The notes below the pieces were generated by a model, which saw nothing but the letters and a program-made list of their open reading frames with translations, had not been told where the DNA came from and did no database searches. A DNA stretch of 64,000 bases from Orbicella franksi (Eukaryota): the NCBI GenBank assembly GCA_964199315.1, contig OZ116703.1:992001-1056000 (forward strand). Direction: 5' to 3'. The stretch's first letter is position 1; each line of letters begins with the position of its first letter. Shown here piece after piece: positions 1,341 to 64,000 of this stretch. A program made the position numbers and the translations under genes.

Positions 1341-1370
1341 CCGTCCGCAAAGTGGCGCATTCACCTCTTT

Positions 1371-1610
1371 TAAAAAAATTATACATCCGTAGACTTTATT
1401 GGAATCCAAGCCATTGCTTCTTTCTTCTAGTATCGTTTGCGCTAATCATTTCTAGTCCTGTGATCATTTGCAAGCATGTACCAATCTCACTAGCTGAACA
1501 TTTACAATGCAGGTTCATAAGGGTTGACGAGGAAAGCGTGCAAGACTTTCATGTCAAATGGACAGCGGGATCTTTGAGTCCTCAGCTCCTCCCGCTATCG
1601 TTTCCACCTT
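1371..1610 (+). repeat. Copy 1 of a ~250 bp duplicated segment (copy 2 at ~9991-10260)
   Basis: Shared blocks tacatccg.agac...ggaatccaagccatt and gttcataa.ggttgacg.ggaaagcgtgcaagact..catg.caaatggacagcg..atctttgagtcctcagct.ctcccgcta. Confidence 0.85.
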
Positions 1611-2989: not shown

Positions 2990-5900
2990 CGACAATACAG
3001 TGAAGGGAGAGGAGGTATCAGTTCACAAGAAGGTAAGAGATTGAGTAAGAAAAACGTGTTAGTAGAACACAGCGGTTTATATAGCTGAATGCATAAGATG
3101 CCTCTCACACGAAAATACCAGTGTGAATTAAAGCGTAAAAATTTTAAAGTCGTTAAGTTGTTAGTGCACTAAATTAAAGGTAAAAGGTTAAAGTATATTT
3201 TTCTCTTGTGCTTCTTTTGTTCAGACAAGAACAAGAAAACGAAAGAACACGGAACAACACGAGTACTGTGAGGAAAATAAAGTTCGTCGAAAGGAAGTGC
3301 ATGCTCAGTGGCTCAACAATTTATCCAACTGCACCGAGGTTAAAGTCCTTGGAGAAGGAGCTTTCGGAAAAGTAGGAAAATTTAAAATTAAGAATAACTA
3401 TACTTCAGGAATTCCAATCTTAAGCGAATCTTTAGTCCACAAAGTTTGAAATTTGTTGCGTTTGCTCGTAGAGTCTTCAGAGAAGTCTCACTTCTGACAA
3501 TTCTAATTTAATTTCTAGCGAGCATTACGTGAAAATTAGCCATTTCAGAGAACTAGTATTGTATGTGTGGGTTGGTGTTATATAAAACACTTCAATGGCG
3601 GATCATGGCAATACAGTAACGCATTCATTTTACTCCTGTTATTTAGGTAAGCCTATATCGACAGAATGACACCAAAATGGATTATGCCGTCAAGGAATTA
3701 AAAAAATTTGATCCAGACAGTTACGAGATCGAGAGAAAAATCTTGGAGCTCGGTAATTCCACTTGGAATCTTTTTCTGTCCGCACTTTGTGGAGAGTTCT
3801 TTTACAAGGTATGTGAAAATCGAATGCCACTTGATCAGTTAGCTAAGCTTTCCAACTACCCCAGGGTTTCGACTAAAACACAGGGCAGCAATTGATCGTT
3901 TACAGCCATTTTAGTTTGCATGCTCTCACTACCCCTCCCTCACTTCCCCCCCCCCCACCCCCCTCTGGAGATAAGTCTGAGGTTTGCCTCCAGTCTTTTC
4001 CCGGAAGAGGGCTTGACGGTGGCTAATATTCCTTTGGGTGTATCTACAGTAAGAGTTATCGTGTAACTCACGGAAAAACGAATTTAGCTTTGTTTGAAAG
4101 CCTGATGATCGTCAGACGATCTTGCAGCGATTGTTTTCTGTTGTTGTCTTGAAATCTCTGTTTATTGTTAACCACATGTTTCTTTCCCGTGTGCGATTGG
4201 TACAAGCACGTCACGTGACGCACCCAGAAGTGGAAAGTAACCGAGGTTATTATTCTCTAGCAATACCCCTAACGTGCTAAAGGCGAGTTTGCATTTCATA
4301 ATACTGTAACAATAACTGGCCGTATCCTATATGATCAATTTCCTTCCATTCTGTTCACATTTCAGGGCTGCCGTTATTTGGTATTGGAGTTTATGCTCGC
4401 AGGGGACCTGCAGAAGGTTTTCGAGATGCACAAAAAACGGTTCAGCGAATTGCAAGCGAGGTAAGATGAAATCGAAAATGTAACGCGTTTGCGGCGCCGT
4501 GCCGTCATCGAGTCGTTAATATATAATTGCATATCTAGAGTTCACAGGCCCATAGAGATAAAGACTATCTATCATCACAGGCTCCCAATGTGTGCAGAAA
4601 AGTAGCACAGCTGCATTTTAAACATTTAGCCTTATTGGCATAAAATACGAGGAGAAATAACTGTATTTAAAACGATTAGTTTTATGATAAACAAAGTTAA
4701 GATGAAGTGTCTTAATGGTTCTTTGGAAGGCAACAAACATTTGATGCTCGATATTTTCAAAGTGTAACTCCAATTTATAATGCCTGTTCTCTAATAATAC
4801 AAATAGTCTCATTATTGTGATGTTTTCATTCTTTATGGTTTTAGATTCTACATCGCTGAAATTATCTGTGGGTTAGAGTTTCTACACTTGCAAGGAGTGG
4901 TCCATAGGTAAAATAGATGTTGCTTCATTTTACAGCACTTTTTTTTATTAATTACCACACACTTGAATACGTACAATACGGCTACCCACACTCGTTAGAG
5001 TACAGTGCGGCTACCAGAGCGATTTTTATTTTAGCGTCGAAAAGTAATTGACTTTGCACTTAGTACGCTACGCGATTGGCTTAAAAAACTCGCGCCAATT
5101 TTAAGACCAAAACCAATCGTTACTCGTTCGCACTCGTTTTCCCGCGCTTCGTGTCATTTTATTACTTCGAGTTTTGATTGGTTCACTTTATTGTCTATGT
5201 CCTTTGTGATTGGCTAGAGTGATTACTTTGGTTTTGGTTTTACGGCACTCAGTTGAAACCGCACTAACATTTCTAACAAAACTAATACCTGGTAAAAATT
5301 TTAAAATGATCTCTGGCTAAAGCGATTAAAAATTACAAGCTTTCGACCGCCTGAAATGCAGTCTTCAACAGGGTAAAATGTCAAAACTAATACCACTCAA
5401 TTTATACAAAGTCTCTTAAAGATTTCCAATCTATCAAAGCATATTATATGTCCATGTTGAGGAGAATTTGTATGGACAGAGTAGATAGGCCATCTTTACT
5501 GATGAGCTTTGGAAATTTTCACAAGTCAGTCATTTTGCTACTCTTCAGCTTAAATTGTCAACGATGATTCGGCGACTTGTCATAGATTTAAATGACTTGT
5601 ACCCAGTCCTCTCATGCTTTGCGCATGCACTAATATTGGGGAATTAGAACTACTTTGTATGGAAGCCACTTCAAATTCTTGTAACTGTTTCTATCTTTCA
5701 TTTTATTACGACAGAGACTTGAAGCTTCAGAACGTCCTTATGGATGAGGAGGGACACCTCAAACTCGCCGACTTTGGTCTGGCAGTGGATGACATGTTGC
5801 TGGGAGAGAAAATCGAAGAAGATTGGGAAACCGGGACACCTTCATATATGGCGCCTGAGGTATGTCTAATCTCAAGCCTCGAAAATGAAAAATTATTGGA

Positions 5901-8559
5901 AATTATAGTGTCTGACTCAGGTCATCGGGTGAGAAGAGCTAGAATATGAACTGTCCCACCTCCTTTTCAATATTAGTCGAGTAAGCCTGTACGCGAACTG
6001 ACGAGCACACTAGCAGACGAGCACGCGAGCACACGAGCACACGAGCACACGAGCACACGAGCACACGAGCACACGAGTACACGAGCACACGAGCACACGA
6101 GCACACGAGCACACGAGCACACGAACACACGAGCACACGAGCACACGAGCACTCGAATTCTCGAGCACACAAGCACGTAAGAACGCGTTCCCACTCGAAA
6201 AATATGATTGCACGAGGAGACTCGTCTCACGCGAGGTGATTTTCGCGCGAGTCTGTATGCTCGTTCCCTGAGCAAAATAAGAGACTCTTTTTAGTCCAAA
6301 TTGGTGAGGAGATGAACAAACAGATTTATGTTTGTCTTCGCTTTTTGTTTTAATCTCTCTGTGTTATTATCTGAGATCCTGTCTGATCTTGTCAAGTGTC
6401 GCTCTACATGCTCTTTATACACCTCACTACATTAAAATCGATGGCAACCGCGTGACTTCATTCTCATTATGACTTTTTTTCAGGTAATTGAACACCAGCC
6501 ATATGATTCCTGTTGTGACTGGTGGTCGCTTGGAGTGATGCTTTACTATATGCTCACATCCATGGTTTGTGACAGAAGTTGTGATTATCCAAGTTAAAAG
6601 TGGCTTTAGTTTCAGCTGTCGATACTCTTGTAATAGTTTTCAGAAACTCGATGGAAGAACTTCGATACTGTTTTAGGATAATCGGTAAATTCCGGTCCCT
6701 GAGGAACGAAGGAGGCCTGGACTCATTTGTGCAGACGCGTTTAACTTAAGCAACTCGGTCGAAAAAAAATTGCATTGAGCAGTAATTTGTTTTAGATGCA
6801 AAAGCACTTAATTTTTTTCCTTATGTGTTCGTTTTTTTTCTTTTAAAGTAACAAGGAAAAAATATAATTCTTTACGATAGCTCTTAGAGTCATGAATAAA
6901 CACCATCATTTTTCGCGCTACAGTGTTCAAGGAGGTCTGGGGCCTCTGGAAATAGGACACCATTTGACGTCAGTAACCATGAATCAAGGCCTTGAATCAA
7001 GACCATGCCCGGTTTGATGTATTTTTTCTTCATGAACAGATGCCGTTTCCTCAAAAAGTCATCCAAGACCTCTATAACGCAATAGTTACAGACGAGGTGG
7101 AATATAGGCGTAAATTGTCTGTGATTGCTTGGAATTTGCTAACACAGGTAGGTAGACATAGTGCAGAGTAAAATTCCTTTTCTATTCCAAAACTAACGAT
7201 TACATATATTCAGAGAGAGCTGAGTTTATGACAGCTCTTCTGACATGCATTTTTCCCTCCTCATATAAAGACAACTTCTTTTTCTTCCATCAGTTGAAAG
7301 TCACTTTTAAACTACATGTTTATGTTTGAAGAACCGAGGGTTTCATTGCGCTGTAGGAAGATAACTTCAAATACTGACGCATTTTTTCAGCTGCCACAAT
7401 TCTAGATATTTTAGACATTCGCACTTATCATATGCACCTCGTTGGGCTATACATATGTCTCTTAGAATTACAATATCTTAACCTTGGTTTGTTTTCTCAA
7501 GCTCTTGGAAAAGAACCCCTTGAGAAGGATTGGTTATAAGGGTGGATCAAACCCGTGGATCAGAAGGCATGGGTTCTTCCAGGCCTTAAACTGGGACGAA
7601 CTTGAACAACGAAACATCAAGCCGCCCTGGAATCCAAGAAAAAGAATTTTGCTCGAGTAAGGATTCTTTTAAAACAAACAAACACACATACATAATGTAA
7701 AATACATTTATGCATTGTGTATGATATGATTCTGAACGAGATGGGACATAGCCAGTCATTCTGTCACAAAAGTGTCATCAGTCATTTTAGCTTTCTTTGA
7801 CAGCGAAAAAGGGTGTTTTTAGCTGTCTTCCTTTGCAGAGGGACGTCTTTTCCTGTTGATGGTTTTGTCTTGTTAAGCTGGTTGTGTTTTCAAAAAAACA
7901 GCAGAATAAGACAAAACTATTAGCAGAAAAAATGATCAAAATGTAAATATGAATGTCAGCCGGCTTATGAGCCTGTCTGTGTGTCTGTGTGGATTTATGT
8001 ATGTGTCTGAACATTGCATTTTCAATTTGATACCACAACCTTGCAATGTGCATTAGTTACCCATTATATCACTACTTTTATAGCTTCAATACACTTATTT
8101 AAAAGTTGATAGCAAAACTAGACAATTATAATTAGGCATCCATCAACATTAGGGTTTTCAGTTTACATGTTCATGACAGTGCCCTTTAACCACAGCATTC
8201 GCTAACGTTAAGGATTCTGTCCCACATATTACAAGCTATAGGTGACGCTATTTTAGACTATGTTAGGCGATTGTGTTACATAAAATGACCGAAACAATTT
8301 TAGTTGTTGGTCCAATTCAAAGACTCTAAGATCAGAACCAACAATCAATAAAGTCGTGATCTATCTTTGCAGGTGTGAGGCAAAAATGGAGAAACAAGGG
8401 AAGTCCTCTCCTGGCTGTAAGAGTTCCTCTGAGAGTTCCAATAAGACTCCCTGTGCTTCCGCTTCTTACTCTGCTTCGTGTGTTTCCGCTGAAGGCATTA
8501 AGGATGAAGATGGTGTCTCTTGTTCTCCTTCAGCGACCGACAATACTTTAACTCCATAG
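2990..8559 (+). CDS. PKC-like AGC-group Ser/Thr kinase, multi-exon; N-terminus unresolved
   Basis: Phase-consistent exons 2990-3032, 3225-3371, 3647-3808, 4366-4460, 4845-4907, 5715-5859, 6484-6564, 7040-7147, 7502-7656, 8373-8559. Motifs: [83 protein letters not shown] further exon at 2889-2944 is possible. Confidence 0.88.
5016..5266. mobile_element. MITE-like non-autonomous element in kinase intron
   Basis: Imperfect TIR (cagagcgattttta / gaaaccgcacta) and internal GATTGG / ttggttttggtttt motifs of a high-copy family I recognise from memory. Confidence 0.55.
6001..6177. repeat. Octamer tandem repeat (GAGCACAC)n, about 20 units, intronic
   Basis: Directly visible; gives the spurious ARVLVCSC ORFs. 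Confidence 0.92.
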
Positions 8560-9156
8560 AAAAGTTGAAATCATTGAACAAACAAGTGATGAGAAAAGAA
8601 ACTCATCAATCAGAAGAACACTGAAAATCTATTCAGATGGAAACCAAGGCTTTGATGATCTCGGTCTTAGAGAATGGAGTAAACAATGAAGAAAATTGTA
8701 AACTGCTGGATACGTACTGTTCTGATGTACCCATGTACCGGTATTTAGCCAGCAAAATTACATCTAAGATCGAGTTCGGTGCCTCGTGAAGCAAAGTGCA
8801 TTTAATTATGGCCAGTAGTAGATCATTTGCGGGCCGGTACAGATCTCTTTCCTTTCACCGTTCGTTTGCCCGCAATTATGTCGAGGACTCACGAGTCCAA
8901 GGATCACCGACTGAATCAGCTATTTTGGTTATCTATAACGGATTTGAGAGAACCCAACACTGCAAGCACTATGCTTCGGTTAACCATAGGCTGCTGTTCA
9001 ATATTTCTTCCCTTTTCTTTATCGTATTTGGCAAGGGGGTCGCGGATCCCGATTTGTTCGAATCCTATCCGTGCGGATACACCAAGGTCATTCTGGATGA
9101 CGTGAACATACACAACGTCGACAATTTATTAAATTTGTAAATATGTACGAAGTTTT

Positions 9157-9347
9157 CCCCTGCTGGCCGGCGCGTCTTCAGACGGATCACCTTCGGGTGG
9201 GACAGGGTCAGCAGGGGTACAAAAATATTTGTCAATTTTTAATCTTAAAAAGTTTTTGAAAATTTTTTAAATATATACGTAGTTTTCCCCTGCTGGCCGG
9301 CGCGTCTTCGGACGGATCACCTTCGGGTGGGACAGGGCCAGTAGGGG
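9157..9347 (+). other. Two tandem copies (130-nt period) of a 61-nt GC-rich three-way-junction motif with two UUCG-type hairpins
   Basis: Copies at 9157-9217 and 9287-9347: CCCCTGCTGGCC-ggcg-CGTC(ttca/ttcg)GACG-gat-CACC(ttcg)GGTG-ggacag-GG(T/C)CAG(C/T)AGGGG. Confidence 0.7.
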
Positions 9348-9990
9348 TAAAAAAATATTGTAAATTTTTAGTATCATAAAATTAAATTGAGTTTCATTGA
9401 AAATTGCTTCTCCGTCTCTTTTTTTCCTACTTACCCCAGAATGCGCCTCAAGGACTCTTTCCAGGTCCTCCATTGTGACGTAGGGCCTTTTGAAGACGTC
9501 AGATCCTTCTCGGGTCGTGACCTCACGGGGGTGTGTCCAAAATGACCGTTTTGGTCATGTGGGCGATATCCGGCTTTCTTATTGATTCATTCAAAAAATA
9601 CTGTGCTCTGATTGGCTTCTCTGCATACCGACTACGTATACTACTTATTCCTGTTTTTTAAAATTATTTTCAGTATTCTGTTCCTTGTCATAATCCCCTA
9701 CACCGCAAATACTGAGGAACGAAACGCAAGCCAGCGCAAGGGCGAACAAGTCTAAACCAAAAGATGAATTTAAGAGCTGACGTCAATCATCTTCGTCTCT
9801 AGTTTTTGAGCTACTTCCTTTACCACTATCTGAGCGTAGATCCTGTGTTCGCAATTTTTGGGTTAGGTTTTCCCTCGAACTGTCGGACAGCGAACGTTCG
9901 CTATACTTTCGAGTTTGGTGGAGAGTGAGAATTCCCGAGTACTTCTCGTTTTTATTGTTGCCTTTATGCCTGACACCACTTAGGATAATT

Positions 9991-10260
9991 TAAAAAATTA
10001 ATATATACATCCGCAGACGTTTCATGGAATCCAAGCCATTCCTACTTTCTTTTTGCGGTACATTTGCGGGAATCATTTCCAGCACTGGGATCATTTGCGG
10101 TCCATTTTAGGGATCATTTGCGGGCCTGTACAAATCTCACTGACTGAACTTTTACAATGCCGGTTCATAAAGGTTGACGGGGAAAGCGTGCAAGACTTCC
10201 ATGCCAAATGGACAGCGAAATCTTTGAGTCCTCAGCTTCTCCCGCTATTGTTCCTCCCCC
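9991..10260 (+). repeat. Copy 2 of the ~250 bp duplicated segment (copy 1 at 1371-1610)
   Basis: Same blocks as copy 1, with a better preserved gggatcatttgcgg repeat inside. Confidence 0.85.
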
Positions 10261-10900
10261 TCAAAAGGTCAAGAGTCTAAACAGAGTAGAACGCTCGGTC
10301 GTGGCCGCCCGCGTGTGAATTCATCACTTCACGGTTTACCACGCAAAATGAAAATGAGCAGCTGGTAATTGTATTCACTGTTCGTAGAGTTCAACCCCTT
10401 TATGGGCTCAAGCCCTACATAGAGCGGAAAGGCAAAGCACAGGGATACCATGATCACGGTCCCAAGTGCAGTTTAAAAAAGAAAACACTCGGATATGAGC
10501 AAACTATTCTTTCTTTTTCAGAGTCCTTTTCAAGCACTATATTACATTTCTGTAAATATGCAGACAGGTATAACAAGTAAATAAACTTTATGACCGTGAT
10601 TTGTGAAAAAAGGTGAGTTTCTAGCGGTCTTTTTTACCGTCAAACACACCCCTACAGTAGGGGGTGTGTTTTGGGGCCCTACTATTGACAACCTTCAAGA
10701 CATCGTTTTGTCAGTTTTCCTATGTTCTCAGCCAATCAAACAACAGCCCTCAAGCGCACCTAGCTGCACGTGGCCGCATTGATTATCCCGCCTCTTCGCA
10801 ACTTGATCTCGTCCCCAGTTGTCCCCAGGTGCTTAGCAAAGGACCGCGGCCTCTGCTCTGGGAACGAGACTGGCCTTCATGAAAAAAACACTCAGGTTGG

Positions 10901-29124: not shown

Positions 29125-32100
29125 ATGAGCGAATGTGGTCGTCAAATCGACGAATCTTCGCGTCTGGTGAACCCAGTTCTGAACGCTTCGCCGGAAGATA
29201 TTGGTCGAATGGCGGTCGGCAGCATTAAAGTTTACAAAAGAAGGTGGTATATTTTAATGCTTTTTACGCTTCTCAACGCAACAGGGAATATTCTGTGGAA
29301 TACATGGCCTCCAGTTCAAGAGACATGCCAACTGGTGTTTGGTTGGGATAAAACGAACGTGTTGATTATCGGCGCTTTACAAGCGCTTGGTTCAATAATC
29401 AGCATAGTGCCGTCCGCATGGCTTTTGGACACAAAAGGTGAGCAGTAAGCAAGTTTATTCTCATTTTTTCCTTTGTTAAGCCTTGTGTAAAACGACATAA
29501 CTTTGGAAGAATCGTCTAAAGCGATCGACCGGCATATTTGTTGATATTGTTGAACAGGATAATTTGAACGAGTTCGCTCATGTTATTCTATCCGCATGAA
29601 CAGCTTCTCAACGCGAAAACGGCCTCAGATTTTTAAACGGCGGTGTCTTGTTGTGAGATCGAGTGATTATAAGCTAGCGTGTTCTTTCCTTCACCGTCAT
29701 GATCAAACAGGACAATAATTATAATGAATTCTCTAATTTTCAAGTACGAAATCGAGGGTCCGGCGAAGTCACGAAGGACAATGTTGTACGTTTGAGTTTG
29801 AAAGCTAAAAGAAAATTTGGGTATCAGATCCTAGACTAAGTGTAGCTCCTCCAAGTAACTCTAAGTCCATCGAGCGTGATTCTTAGGAAAGTGGGTGAGA
29901 GAGAAAGAGCTATGTTTTGTCGCCTCTCGGCCATTTTGGCCCAGCCATTTTGGACATTAGCATGCGCTATCTCTGGTCACGCTCACGGGGCTACGCAGCA
30001 AGCGTTCCCGTATGAAGAGCTTTTTTGCATTCTGGCCGCGCGCGTAAAGTGGAGCGAGAACAAAAACTCGTCTCTCGCGCGCTTCAATTTACGCGCGGCC
30101 AAAGTACGGAAAAGCTCTTCCTACCGGAACACTTGCTAAGCAGGCTAGCTAAGGCCTAGTCAGGACACTAGCGACACTAACGACATAAGGAGGACGGTAA
30201 GTTTGCTTTGTGAACGTCTTGACATAATGACACAATAGCAACATAACAGCATGAACATAGCGACATAGGGAAAAAACCTGATCTTTTCCTTATGCTTTTT
30301 ATGTCGATGTTCACGTTGCGACATATATAAGCTACTATGTCGTCATGTAACTATGTCGTTATATCGCTCGTGTGAACAAGGCTTGCGGCTAAAACAGCAT
30401 GAACTTAACGTCATAGGGGGAAAACAGATCTTTTCCTTATGTCGTTATGTCGATGTTTACATTATAAACATAGGCCTCTACTCAAATATCGAAGAGAAAT
30501 ATTTAGAGAATTTTAGAGATATTTAGAAAATTTAGGGATATTTAGTAAAATATTTAGAGACACTAAATTTTAGTAATATTCATGGTTTTTCTGGCTGAAC
30601 CCTATGTTTTCTTCGCTACCATTACTCCGTTCTTTGCCAGAAATAATCTTTTTCAGTGGTTCCCTACTTGAAAAATATATTCCATATCACTACAAAAGCA
30701 CTAAAGCAATAATTTTCTATACCAGCATCCAGCGGATGCTGGTATGAACATCGAAGCGCCAGAATCTTCCTCAAACCCCTCTACTACTGCGAGAAAATTT
30801 TGAAAATTTTGGCCTAGGAAAATAAGAGAAATTTAGAAATTCTTTTAATGATATTTTTTATGATTTTGAGCATTTGCGGAAAGATATTGAGGTGATTTTA
30901 CTTGATATTTCTGGAAAGGCTTAAACCGACATATGGCGATTATGTCGTTATGTCATTTTGTCGTTTTGTCGTTAGTGTGAACTAGGCTTAAGAGAGAAGA
31001 GGGTTGCTCGGAGTCTATTTATATCCAGAGGGGATGATGGTCCGTTATTTTTGGGCCAGTGTTCACCGAACTTTTCCCAGATTTGCTTGTGATGGCAAAC
31101 TACAACATGGTCTGTGACAAACATGAATCTCAAATATACAGGGCAGTTGAAGATATTTATATGAAGACTGATATGCTCCTCAGGATTACCACTGACAAGG
31201 TACGGGGCCTCCGGTGAAAGGAAACGGGGCCTGGTGAACGTAGGTTAGCTCATCAGAAACTGACGCATAATGTTTATACCTCTAGGTATACCCCACAGTA
31301 GATTCATTTCCACAGCCTAGTACAGTAGGCCTACAGTTTCATTCTTTCGTAAACCTCACAGATCGTAATTTCGTCTCCAAGACTAATTTAACTATATAGT
31401 CAAACTCAAACACTTTCCTTGACATTTTTTTTAGGTCTTCGGTTTGCAGTCATATGCTCCATGTCACTTCAAACCATCGCTGTCGTCTGCGAACTCATCC
31501 CGTCCCCTCCCCATGTGAGGACCGCGCTCATCACGTTTGCCGAGTTCTTGATTTCAGTGGCGGTACCCGCTGTACAAAATGCGGGCGTGCTTGTGCTGTC
31601 CGCGACCTGGTTCCCGCCACACGAGCGCATGACCGCCACTGCCATCGCCACACTGGTTTCGTACCTTGGGTCGGCGTTTAGCTATGTCGTGGGTCCAAAC
31701 TTCGTACCCGATGTAGATTATGGCAACTTAACTCATTATCAAACAGGAAAAGGCATCGATATCAACAAATTGAGGAATAACACCACTCCGGAACAAATGA
31801 AATTTCTTTTGACTAGAATAAACGACTACTTGTTCATCGAGGCTGTTTTAGTTGGAGTATTATTCTTCGCGGTGCTGATTTATTTTCCCGCCAAACCGCC
31901 CAGCCCACCAAGCTTGTCGTCCGCTGCCGGGCGCCTAGATTTTGCTTCTGGCGCCAAAACTCTGCTCACAAACCGGTCATTCTGGTTACTGTTGTTAATC
32001 TTCAGTCTCAGTAACGGAGTGAACTGGGGATGGTCTAGTGTCCAGGACCTTATCTTCTCTGGAGTTGGGATTGATCAGAAGACCGCTGGCTGGTTAGGAT

Positions 32101-32698
32101 TTTGGGCTAACGTTGCTTCCCTTCTTGGTATATCCTTTTCTTGGTAAGTTTTTTTCTATAGACTGGAGGAGACTGGAATACCCCAGGTAAAATCTTCGGA
32201 GTGGGTACGCTGTTTAATATGATTTGCACACGCAATTTTAGGCTTAGCTAACATTACAACACTATTTTCTCTTCACACAGGTATGCCGATCGCATTCAGA
32301 GCTTCACCAAACCAATCTTAGTCTTCCTCTTTGTCGCTACAGCCTGTGCTCAAACAGTCCTCTCTCTAGCGTGCGAGGGGGTCATACTTCTAACAAAACC
32401 CGTCTTTTATGCCTCGGGCATCTCACAGGTGGTTCTGTTCTGTGGAACTGTTCCCCTCATCATGGAACTCGCTGCCGAGTGCACATATCCGGTCGCTGAG
32501 GGAATCACGTCCGGTATAATGATCTTATCCGTGTACGTCATCAATTTTGTTTTCTTTATCGCTTTCATGTTTCCGCAAGCGAGCCCGCGATGGATGAACT
32601 GGTTACTAGTCTCCTCGACAGTGGTTTGCACTCCGCTTATAGCGCTGTACAGGGCAAGATACAAACGACTGGATGTGGACGAATCAAAACAGAGTTGA
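29125..32698 (+). CDS. SLC49A4: MFS transporter, SLC49A4/DIRC2-like paralog 1 (479 aa, 3 exons)
   Basis: Exons 29125-29437, 31435-32143, 32281-32698 (1440 nt, in frame). Motifs VYKRRWYIL, WNTWPP, LSATWFPPHERMTATAI, YFPAKPPSPPSLSS, ELAAECTYPVAEG. Confidence 0.85.
30151..30990. mobile_element. Nested MITEs in intron 1 of MFS paralog 1
   Basis: Outer element aaggcctagt...gacataa / ttatgtc...gtgtgaactaggctta. Inner element 30472-30922 with imperfect TIR aggcctctactcaaatatc / gatatttctggaaaggctt. Confidence 0.6.
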
Positions 32699-37211: not shown

Positions 37212-38126
37212 ATTAGTTTTACCGGTTCAAAAGCCGTTGCGTAAGAACAAGAAAGTCATCAGAATCTGTGCAATAACTTAAAGAAATCCAAAAGACGAAA
37301 AGAAAAAAACAAAAACAAGGAAACATGTTTCGGATGTTCAGTATCAGTCATCAGCTACACACACAAGTAGGGTAGAGTAGACGAGTAGATATCTTGTGTA
37401 CTCATTTGTTATTCTTGCTCATGAAGTTCCCATTATATAAAACGCGTCGGGAAGCATAAGAAGGTAGCGGAAGGTTTCGGACCAAATCAAGTTCGCACCG
37501 TAAGTGTTCGCACCAGAAACTCGATTGGTGCGAAACTCAACAAATTTTCCAACGACGTAGCAGAAAACAATACCTCCCCTCCACCCACCGGTAAACTAAG
37601 AACGAACTTTTGCGCGGCTAAACCTGGGCTAAACGAAGAAATCCCAGGAGGGAAAGAGCTTTAGAATTATCATATTCTGACTAAACAAAAGTAGCTGAGC
37701 AACTTTTCATAGCAGGAGGGAGCCGCACGTTGGTAAATAATCTTCCCACCCCACAGCCACAGGTCAGTCACATGACAAACCAGTTGTAAAAATATCCGCG
37801 CGAGCGACCGGTCTTTGTGTCTTCTGGCTACTAGTAAGTTCAAGGTTTTTCACGGAGGTTTCTTTCCTCTTGGCTTTTGCTTGGACTTTTGAGTGGTGAA
37901 TCGAAACAGGTCTTTGATTGTCTACAAGAGAGGAAGGCAAGCACTGTCTGCTAAAATCCAAACACAGGTTGATATGGTTTGGCAGTCCGTGTAGGTCTTT
38001 CGTGTGCTGAAACCTTGAATCTTTTTGAACCGGCGAAGCTTCGCTCTTTGACAAGAAGTCTTTGAAGTAGCAGAAGTTTTGGCATTTCCTGAGTGCTTCG
38101 AGAACTTATTGATAAAAAGGAGCCCC

Positions 38127-41036
38127 ATGAAGAAAAATCAGTCCTTTGAAGAGAGAGCGGCCTTGCTTCGTTCAGAAGATCGGCGATATCGGTCGCTTGG
38201 TTCCGTTCACCAAAACAAATGCAAGGTCTACAAACGCCGATGGTACATTCTCACTATTTTCTCAATCGTTGCGGCGCTCAACAATTTAATCTGGAATACT
38301 TGGGGACCTATACAGGGTACTTCACAAGTTGTGTTTGGCTGGGACAACACCACTATTACACTGCTGGCTGATTGGGGCCCGATATCATTCGTTGTTGCCG
38401 TTGTTCCGATGTGCTGGTTGATGGATATGAAAGGTAAGCTTAAACGTTATGTCAATTAGATTAAGCTCATTGTGTTACTGATAGCAGACTTCTTATTCGT
38501 TTCAATGTAAGCTTAATTTCAAATGATAAAGATTAGACAGCGTTGGGTTTCGATGGATCCAATGAACAAACTGTGCGTGTAAAATTGCATAGTAGGAGTA
38601 GTTCTAAGTTACCGTAGTTCCCTCTAGAAATTCCAGCTTTGGTTCATACATTCCTTGAATAACTGGATCATGTACACTAAAGACATCCGCAGTCAAATGT
38701 GGATCAATACCCTTAATTGATACCCTTGATCAACCCTCTGTCGACCCTTGATGGACACTTGATTGATACTCCATCGACACTCCATCAAAACCTTATTTGA
38801 TATTCAATCAACACTTGATAGACATCTTGGTCAACAGTCAGTCGAGAACTGTGTAATTTTCAATCACTGCATATGAGATATCGATAGAGTGTCATTCCTG
38901 GGTCTATACTTGAGGGTATTGATTGATACTCGACGGTGGTTGCCTTTAGTACACATGATCCTGGAGACCTTGAATTTTCCAATAACCTTCCTTAGGGTGG
39001 GTATGGATATTTTCTGGAACCACACTGTCACAATTTCATACATTTCATCATATCCAGTTGACGTAGCAATGACCCTAGTAACAGAAGTTGGAGTTAAGTG
39101 TCAGCTCAGATAGGCTCCTTCGACTCACTGAACTGGAACAAGTGTGATCAGGAATATGGATCTAAGTCGATCATATTGACTCTTTTTCTGTGTTGATTTA
39201 TAGGCCTAAGAGTAGCTGTCCTAGTTGCCATTTTTTGTGAGTTTATTGGATCTGGCCTGCGCTGTATACCACTCAGTGATCAGCATGTGAACCTACAGAC
39301 TGCGCTTATCCATTGTGGACAGTTTATAACTGGAATTGGAGGTCCAATTGCCATGGCTGCAGCTCCAATGGTTTCTGCAGCGTGGTTCCCTCCTGAGCAG
39401 CGTACGACTGCGACTGCAATTTCTTCCCTGGCTTGTTACAGTGGGACAGCTTTGTCATTTGTAATTGGGCCACTTTTGGTTCCTGATGTGGAGGAATATT
39501 TCAAACAAAATGAGCTTAACGTTACCAGTAATGGGCAGATTTCTTATCTTGAGCTGAGAAATCATTTTAACCAGACAGAGATAGACTACTTCAAGCACAA
39601 AATAATGTACCTGATGTACATAGAGCTGGGAATCACCGCTCTTACAATGTTGTGTGTTATCATTCATTTTCCTGAGAAGCCCAAACTGCCACCAAGTGTC
39701 ACTGCTGCCATTGGACGTCTGGAATTCAAAGTTGGTGCCAAGAGCTTACTAAAGAATTCACAGTTTTGGCTGTTGGTGGTTATTTATGGAATAGGAACTG
39801 GAGTTTATGGTGGCTGGTGTTCAATTCTAGACCTGAACCTCTCACAGTTCGATATTGATCAGAAAACTGCTGGTTGGTTAGGGTTTGGTGCCGTTGTTGC
39901 TGGATCAGTCTCAGGAATTTCATTGTCAATGTAAGCACAAAGTTACACTTGTACTGTTAACTTAAACATACAGTTGAACCTGACTATCTAGAACATGTTA
40001 TCTTGAACTCCCTGTTATCTCAGACTCAAATAATTTCTCCTTTGAATCTGATTTTCTTTGTTCATTTACAATAAATTGGCTATGTTAAACTCCTGCCTTT
40101 TTGTACAATTTTTTCATCTTCCTAAATCAGGAAAGTGGGCTTCAGGTGTAGTTAACATACATCAATTCATTAATTGAGACACTCACTTGTTGTTCTGTCA
40201 TCTTTTATAAGCAAATTCCTTTAGGCTAACTAGTGTAAATCTCTCTTTATTGAAAACTTTTTAAATGGTGCACTTTTTAAACGGTACACCTGGGTGGAGA
40301 GAGGCACTGTGAGAGTAAAGTGTCTTGCCCAAGAACACGACGCAATGTGCCCGGCCAGGGGTTGGACATGTAGTGCTCAATCCTGAGATGAGCACACTAA
40401 CTATGGGGTCTCCGCACCTCCCATTAATGTATATGTAATGAAAAGTATTAATTTAAGATCATTGCTTTTTGTTTCAGATTTGCTGACCACTTCACTCGTT
40501 ACATGAAGCTGATTGTCATAGCACTCCTAACTGGTGCCACAGCATCGCTCTCAATTTTTACTCTGATATGTGCTGGTGTTATTCCGTACTCAAAACTTGT
40601 CCTCTTTATAACAAGCATCTTGGGAGGGTTGTTCGTGAATGGAACCATCCCACTATTCTTTGAATTAGCTGTGGAATCTACATACCCAGTCGCTGAAGGA
40701 ATCACCTCAGGATTCCTAACATTCTCCAATAATTTCTTGCAAATAGTTTTCTACATCTTCCCAATGCTGCCGCACTTTGGTCTAAAATGGATCAACTGGT
40801 GCACTTTTGTGACGACCGGTCTTTGCATTCCTCTCTTGATGCTGTGGAAGCAGAGGCGCTACCGCTCTGATGTTGATGCAAAAGACAGCTATGTTCCTGC
40901 CCCCCATAACAAAGAACTGAGCACTGAGGTCAATTATGGCAGTGGAAGTGTATCATCTAGTGTTAATGGTTTCCTACCAGGTTCTTCAGCACAGACACAT
41001 TCTTATGGCACAAGTAGTTATCCTTCAGTTGCATAA
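38127..41036 (+). CDS. SLC49A4: MFS transporter, SLC49A4/DIRC2-like paralog 2 (530 aa, 3 exons)
   Basis: Exons 38127-38433, 39204-39930, 40478-41036 (1593 nt, in frame); same intron positions and phases as paralog 1. Motifs EERAALL, VYKRRWYIL, WNTWGPI, SAAWFPPEQRTTATAI, FFELAVESTYPVAEG. Confidence 0.9.
38665..38961. mobile_element. MITE in intron 1 of MFS paralog 2
   Basis: TIR ggatcatgtacactaaagacatcc / gttgcctttagtacacatgatcc; internal ttgat/cgac repeats. Confidence 0.7.
40283..40422 (-). mobile_element. tRNA-derived SINE 5' part
   Basis: Reverse strand: tRNA-like head followed by gtgttcttgggcaagacactttactctcacagtgcctctctccacccaggtgtacc, a conserved SINE core block. Confidence 0.7.

Positions 41037-43922: not shown

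Positions 43923-64000
<20,078 letters not shown>

Follow-up and report, generated by a model that had tools for sequence, protein, structure and literature searches.

A covarying three-way-junction motif at the gene ends of coral Polintons: a candidate structured RNA from Orbicella franksi

Polintons are recognized by terminal inverted repeats, ends of the form AGT...ACT and a 6-bp target duplication. Polinton/adintovirus elements are widespread in stony corals (PMC8502044, PMC11131425), and the genes of alpha-type adintoviruses, as given in PMC8502044, include a PLA2-like gene. The control of Polinton mRNAs has been little studied, and no structured RNA is described for these elements in the literature that we searched: the main text of PMC8502044 (supplements aside) uses neither 'hairpin' nor 'non-coding', and that of PMC11131425 (supplements likewise aside) none of 'hairpin', 'stem-loop', 'ribozyme', 'untranslated' and 'secondary structure'. 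In the yeast pGKL linear virus-like elements, RNA stem-loops set the 3' ends of mRNAs; according to PMC6211774, these structures lie at a median of 26 nt from the stop codon and some are located inside terminal repeats.

The DNA analyzed here, which we call the window, is a stretch of 64,000 nt from Orbicella franksi (GCA_964199315.1, contig OZ116703.1, positions 992,001-1,056,000 of the forward strand). A preliminary description had reported two units at a 130-nt period with an AT-rich spacer between them, and the window sequence confirmed this layout. Units of 61 nt occupy positions 9157..9217 (unit 1) and 9287..9347 (unit 2) of the + strand, and the spacer (9218..9286, +) is part of a local 130-nt tandem duplication that is also present in the paralog at C6:1939569. 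There was no third match within the 64-kb window, and two matches were reached in 0 of 100 shuffles. The bit scores of the units (91.9 and 94.6) are self-inclusive, since both belong to the training set of the model. RNA folding of the + strand supported the proposed 12-bp closing stem (P1) and two short hairpins per unit (in unit 1, a P2 of 4 bp and a P3 of 4-5 bp), with energies of -33.3 kcal/mol (z -3.06) for unit 1 and -34.9 kcal/mol (z -3.55) for unit 2; the - strand folded 7-8 kcal/mol worse (-26.6 and -27.1 kcal/mol). The twin cUUCGg hairpins that had been described hold for only three of the four loops, because the first hairpin of unit 1 has TTCA and not TTCG. The units differ at 3 of 61 positions. 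The two swaps of G-C for G-U, which had been taken as a sign of pairing in plus-strand RNA, are real; however, they are plain C/T transitions and carry little weight alone, since rare changes in the window-type subfamily give A-C as often as G-U (9 and 8 times, respectively, as distinct pair states in 28 distinct units). The strong support for the fold comes from other subfamilies and not from the pair differences of the window itself.

The same fold was present in at least 20 copies in the genome, a lower bound established by pattern, BLAST and local model searches. These copies define four sequence subfamilies of 5, 2, 9, and 4 members, each with its own P1 sequence and P3 arm. When eight copies from the four subfamilies were aligned, RNAalifold recovered the same junction unprompted; 94.7% of the cells of this alignment pair, 7 of the 19 pairs are changed on both sides, and the covariation score was 0.47, compared to 0.24 for shuffled alignments (0 of 500 shuffles reached the observed value) and at most 0.17 when slid. 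An alignment of 21 copies, some rows of which are misaligned by a bulge, was 87.4% paired with 7 of 20 pairs changed on both sides, a count that was matched or beaten by 39 of 500 shuffles. Note that relatedness inflates covariation tests and that the independent lineages number only four. P1 and P3 vary on both sides and the junction is nearly fixed, its near-invariant bases being GGCG, GA and G-W-M-A. P2 does not vary except for changes of the G-U type and a few breaks. It has no change on both sides and can therefore be read also as a DNA palindrome. A GC-rich repeat carrying a protein site in double-stranded DNA, with incidental outer stems, would present such an invariant palindrome next to promoter-like DNA, as is the case here. 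However, the pairing of P1 and P3 was kept through four sequences, which is needless for a double-stranded site; the covariation largely refutes this interpretation, and we consider it very improbable.

G-U cells outnumber A-C cells by 37:9 in 20 genome copies, a count inflated by shared descent, and cUUCGg loops are present in three subfamilies. The stability of cUUCGg is a property of RNA. G-T pairs are tolerated in DNA hairpins too, and the + strand is also the better folder as DNA (z about -3), with about half the folding energy. The excess of G-U and the cUUCGg loops favor sense-strand RNA, with G-T-tolerant single-stranded DNA as a less probable alternative. The earlier suggestion of a candidate novel structured RNA is sustained by a conserved motif, real covariation, the lack of an Rfam match and the favored + strand. 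In metagenomes, 21 of 120 pattern-matched loci carried the full fold, resembled the copies of this genome and included arrays of up to three units; the remaining 99 lacked the fold by stem counts, and the seven best of them scored by the model reached at most 16.6 bits. The sequencing runs that contain the window stretch include coral metagenomes.

Sequence comparison places both units within the 640-bp relic of a Polinton (Maverick/adintovirus-like). We assign this relic to the right end of the element because a polymerase tail lies upstream and terminal-type DNA ending in ACTACT lies downstream. It runs from the last codons of a DNA polymerase B through the units to the terminal DNA. The remnant of the protein-primed polymerase (9006..9140, +) retains the last 44 codons with a stop at 9138-9140, and aligns to the tail of the polymerase of locus L030 (19 of 44 residues identical, pairwise E 6e-11), which itself matches PF03175 (E 3.3e-21). 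The terminal DNA (9358..9645, +) has CCAAT- and TGACGT-like words and ends in ACTACT at 9640-9645, the segment 9595-9649 matching the Polinton end of L215. The integrase is absent from the relic, which retains the right end only. DNA searches revealed four further sites, two of which are paralogous kinase regions (78-87% identical over ~8 kb). A more distant copy led to loci where the motif directly follows the stop codon of a gene for protein-primed DNA polymerase B. This polymerase has at least 150 matches in the 497-Mb genome (150 scored of 207 candidates).

Several contexts had been considered for the motif before its surroundings were known. No retroelement or single-stranded DNA virus was found around the motif. 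A retrozyme or Penelope-like element does not fit, as the motif adjoins a Polinton end and no hammerhead was found. A terminal hairpin of an element is at odds with a location 300-700 bp inside the end. It had also been proposed that the motif would be dismissed if it were simply the subterminal repeat of a transposon. This applies in part: the host is indeed a Polinton, and one insertion includes the motif in its terminal inverted repeat, as the innermost segment. However, interior copies also occur, so this status does not explain the motif away.

Whole elements define where the motif is placed. The element on C8 encodes an integrase (rve, E 6.5e-15), a PLA2-like gene (PF08398, E 4.2e-12) and polymerase B, has AGTAGT/ACTACT ends with a 6-bp flanking repeat, and carries the motif outside its terminal repeat. 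Polymerase B, the rve integrase, the PLA2-like gene and inverted terminal repeats are features that the host element shares with Polintons and alpha-type adintoviruses (PMC8502044, PMC11131425). Candidate frames for the capsid and packaging ATPase of the C8 element matched no Pfam family and gave no meaningful PDB match; a Walker-A-like word is visible in a carrier element. Ends and 6-bp flanks with 0-1 mismatch were found in C1a, C1b and C8, and the first two count as one insertion event because their flanks are identical. In this C1 insertion, both terminal inverted repeats (765/767 bp) have the motif as their inner edge, where it reads outward; on the left, an outward-reading gene precedes it, and in one of the two copies of the insertion a tRNA-His gene does so too. 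In the metagenome locus L121, the motif follows an upstream gene and precedes the polymerase promoter. The fourth variant is embedded in frame in the polymerase gene of four elements, within its variable 5' region; it has a variant junction and is absent from sister elements. Motif sites are of four kinds: downstream of the polymerase stop, at the distal end of whole elements, ahead of the polymerase promoter, and within the polymerase reading frame. Wherever an upstream gene can be identified, the motif has the sense orientation of that gene; the copies on C10 and C15 are in a fragment inside another transposon and hence offer no test of orientation. Most Polinton families of the genome lack the motif. 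The tandem layout is secondary, given that whole elements carry single units.

Two other interpretations of these copies were examined and rejected. Stop-codon readthrough was considered for the in-frame copies, and an upstream in-frame stop is present in only two of the four. A Helitron or PIF1-element origin was considered for the C10 and C15 copies, which resemble a Polinton fragment inside another large transposon. That element (C10 ~0.87-0.89 Mb and C15 ~12.42-12.44 Mb, L014-L017) is a large repeat carrying a Polinton end fragment, with frames that by eye resemble PIF1 helicase, a P/THAP-type transposase and a HIRAN domain.

The location at the inner edge of the 765-bp repeat, at both ends of one insertion, and the better DNA folding of the + strand agree with a fold formed in single-stranded DNA displaced during protein-primed replication, where it would serve replication or integration. 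We nevertheless regard this function as unlikely, given the motif-free families, the location outside the repeat in C8, the interior location in L121 and in the in-frame copies, the RNA nature of cUUCGg stability, and a folding energy that drops to about half in DNA.

The neighborhood of the polymerase stop was inspected for AATAAA and the junction in 56 loci, grouped by eye into eight families. In the two commonest families, AATAAA occurred within 25 nt of the polymerase stop in all 27 loci and the junction in none. Conversely, neither AATAAA nor ATTAAA was found within 200 nt in 7 of 7 loci of the P-subfamily and in 2 of 3 window-type loci, the third of which has a premature stop. The trade-off is imperfect because both the junction and a close AATAAA are missing from 19 loci, those of the delta, gamma, epsilon and zeta groups; two of these groups carry a second motif, described below. 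The window itself has ATTAAA at 9128 and 9381. Words of the form UGUAHAUA, given as a Pumilio motif in PMC2265480, occurred within 60 nt of 7 of the 8 gene-end copies, up to four times in a copy and never antisense, compared to shuffle means of 0.005-0.05; none was found near the two in-frame copies tested. One such word, a predicted site only, overlaps the polymerase stop of the window (9136..9143, +). Many UGUAAAUA words overlap the stop codon, those of motif-free families included.

Our preferred explanation, which we hold tentatively and with somewhat less than even confidence, is that the units are locally duplicated relic copies of a Polinton gene-end junction motif that acts as a protein-binding RNA signal for the 3' end or fate of viral mRNAs where AATAAA is missing. 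Its directly supported parts are the Polinton context, the covarying fold, the sense orientation relative to every upstream gene that could be identified, and the observation that carrier families have no AATAAA nearby. To judge from the G-U pairs and the cUUCGg loops, the motif would fold as RNA rather than as single-stranded DNA. Its near-invariant junction may provide a protein-binding surface, possibly on tandem G-A pairs, and the motif could cooperate with UGUAHAUA words in its flanks to influence how the 3' end forms or what becomes of the mRNA. With four copies in frame, the motif cannot serve as an obligatory 3' end; these copies speak against obligatory cleavage or termination and fit a binding site.

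A compact small junction with variable stems and fixed junction bases, placed at gene ends without AATAAA and recurring in arrays of 2-3 units, also recalls a new self-cleaving ribozyme that would cut Polinton transcripts into 3' ends. However, constant cleavage would destroy the mRNA of the four elements with in-frame copies in the 5' part of the polymerase gene, where the junction is variant, there is no evident pseudoknot partner, and the loops are of the UUCG type. The preliminary description had found no fit to hammerhead, HDV, twister, pistol or hatchet, and our comparisons agree: no such Rfam family was recovered, nor were hammerhead or HDV core words. The hammerhead core (CUGANGA plus GAAA) had no match on the + strand of 9111-9400 and no Rfam match on either strand; no HDV L3-like word was found either, and no Rfam match to HDV. 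The consensus fold is a nested junction and not the double pseudoknot of HDV, it being understood that RNAalifold cannot predict pseudoknots. The idea that the terminal bases are HDV-like was rejected, as it fails in other subfamilies. No family of twister, twister-sister, pistol or hatchet appeared at E<=10 in the window and L043 or at E<=1 in four more loci; twister- and pistol-like words were confined to the AT spacer, and no hairpin-ribozyme word pair was found. Overall, Rfam gave no meaningful match in the window (six chance matches at E<=10) and none in L043, and the four more loci gave four microRNA-precursor matches located away from the motifs. We therefore judge a self-cleaving ribozyme improbable.

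The relic is located behind a host protein kinase gene (3000..8559, +, start approximate; Pkinase E 8.8e-12) whose last open frame ends at 8557-8559, and gene and relic were duplicated together at C6:1.94 Mb and C4:32.1 Mb. Units differ from paralog units at 2-7 of 61 bases, approximately as do flanks at 86-91% identity, and among the rare changes of window-type units the stem-breaking states are as varied as the G-U states. No selection on the copies of the window was detected from unit and flank divergence and from pair states; these copies are probably neutrally decaying, inactive passengers in or near the 3' UTR of the kinase. Two diverged copies of a small repeat (window 1369-1602 and 9989-10252) flank the kinase gene and relic, and part of this repeat (10087-10126) is very abundant in contigs of RNA runs, at a depth >1300. 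Further along the window there are two tandem genes that are membrane-transporter-like by eye (31392-32698 and 38052-41036) and the exons of another large gene (55119-63018).

Host adoption, in which the relic array now regulates the kinase mRNA, is not exclusive of the other interpretations. Arrays of 2-3 units arose at least twice in kinase-linked copies, with different breakpoints; L091 has lost the polymerase remnant, and its three units directly follow the kinase stop; and there is no AATAAA between the kinase stop and 10100. Against this stand the divergence of units and flanks and the varied stem-breaking states described above. Two raw-read runs yielded 0 and 1 reads across 7400-10400, and in two RNA runs the assembled contigs that cover the units are shallow and unstranded. 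We consider host adoption quite improbable. A broader proposal would give coral Polintons a 3'-end system that does without AATAAA and has the junction as its catalytic or processing core. The junction might then represent a new ribozyme class of the self-cleaving kind, the first from a Polinton, and the host may have kept and multiplied it behind a kinase family; this we judge to be distinctly unlikely.

Other structures were observed at Polinton ends. Motif B, a second covarying hairpin, is located behind the polymerase stop; its loop is of the ACUAG type, and it has one small bulge besides an ACAC bulge. It is commoner than the three-way junction, with loci at L003:1626-1662, L005:1691-1728, L225:410-447, L021, L023, L260, L267, and L253. 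Its pattern had 42 matches genome-wide, compared to 5 for the reversed control, and no Rfam match. The motif B hairpin of the paralogs was deleted from the window (near 9358). Three Polinton-end regions on C13 (2.897, 2.915, and 2.933 Mb; L023, L024, L026), ~18 kb apart and 99.8% alike, have two motif B hairpins each. A Polinton-borne tRNA-His(GTG) gene is located just inside the left terminal repeat (L190:4715-4788, - strand; C1 ~11.515 Mb), and L093 and L121 have tRNA-like remnants in this position; such remnants also lie upstream of some polymerase genes. In L043 (~2020-2260) and sister loci of the P subfamily, a long GC-rich stretch behind the junction is probably structured and has no Rfam match. 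The terminal repeat of C1/C8 type (e.g., L043 ~2280-2450) contains a TATA box, an ATG and a splice donor that face outward and look like the promoter and first exon of the polymerase gene; it could therefore drive transcription into host DNA.

The system lends itself to experiment. The motif, with 61 nt and four natural variants, is small enough for probing and cleavage tests within days, and sister families in the same genome that use AATAAA provide a natural contrast. Further families have motif B in the same position, suggesting that 3'-end RNA modules form a small set. Binding of a protein by the junction would imply a factor, of host or viral origin, that governs Polintons; if the junction cleaves, it would constitute a new ribozyme class.

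In searches of the openly accessible literature, no description of the motif was found. Viral contigs gave no match for two patterns, no polymerase relatives and one core-only match without stems, and prokaryote genomes gave one core-only match and no full fold by exact patterns. The motif is a real structured feature, apparently undescribed so far, of a known kind of mobile element. The small self-cleaving ribozymes of mobile elements are alike in size, in variable stems around a conserved core, and in tandem occurrence; the motif differs from them in having no Rfam match and no core words, and in belonging to a DNA element and not a retroelement. Kink-turns and k-junctions are defined by tandem G-A/A-G pairs next to a 3-nt bulge. 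As in these structures and in SECIS elements, P3 can pair at its base as U-G or C-G followed by A-G and G-A, and tandem G-A is possible in most copies; the motif however lacks the 3-nt bulge, and the second G-A is lost in three of the four in-frame copies and in one T copy. The pGKL structures (PMC6211774) are weak simple hairpins (median -7.5 kcal/mol) that have no sequence in common with one another, whereas the coral motif is a junction of -33 kcal/mol with fixed bases. Furthermore, pGKL is read by its own cytoplasmic RNA polymerase (PMC6211774), whereas the coral element is presumably read by host polymerase II. The control of 3' ends by pGKL stem-loops is the nearest experimentally tested parallel to the junction motif of coral Polintons.
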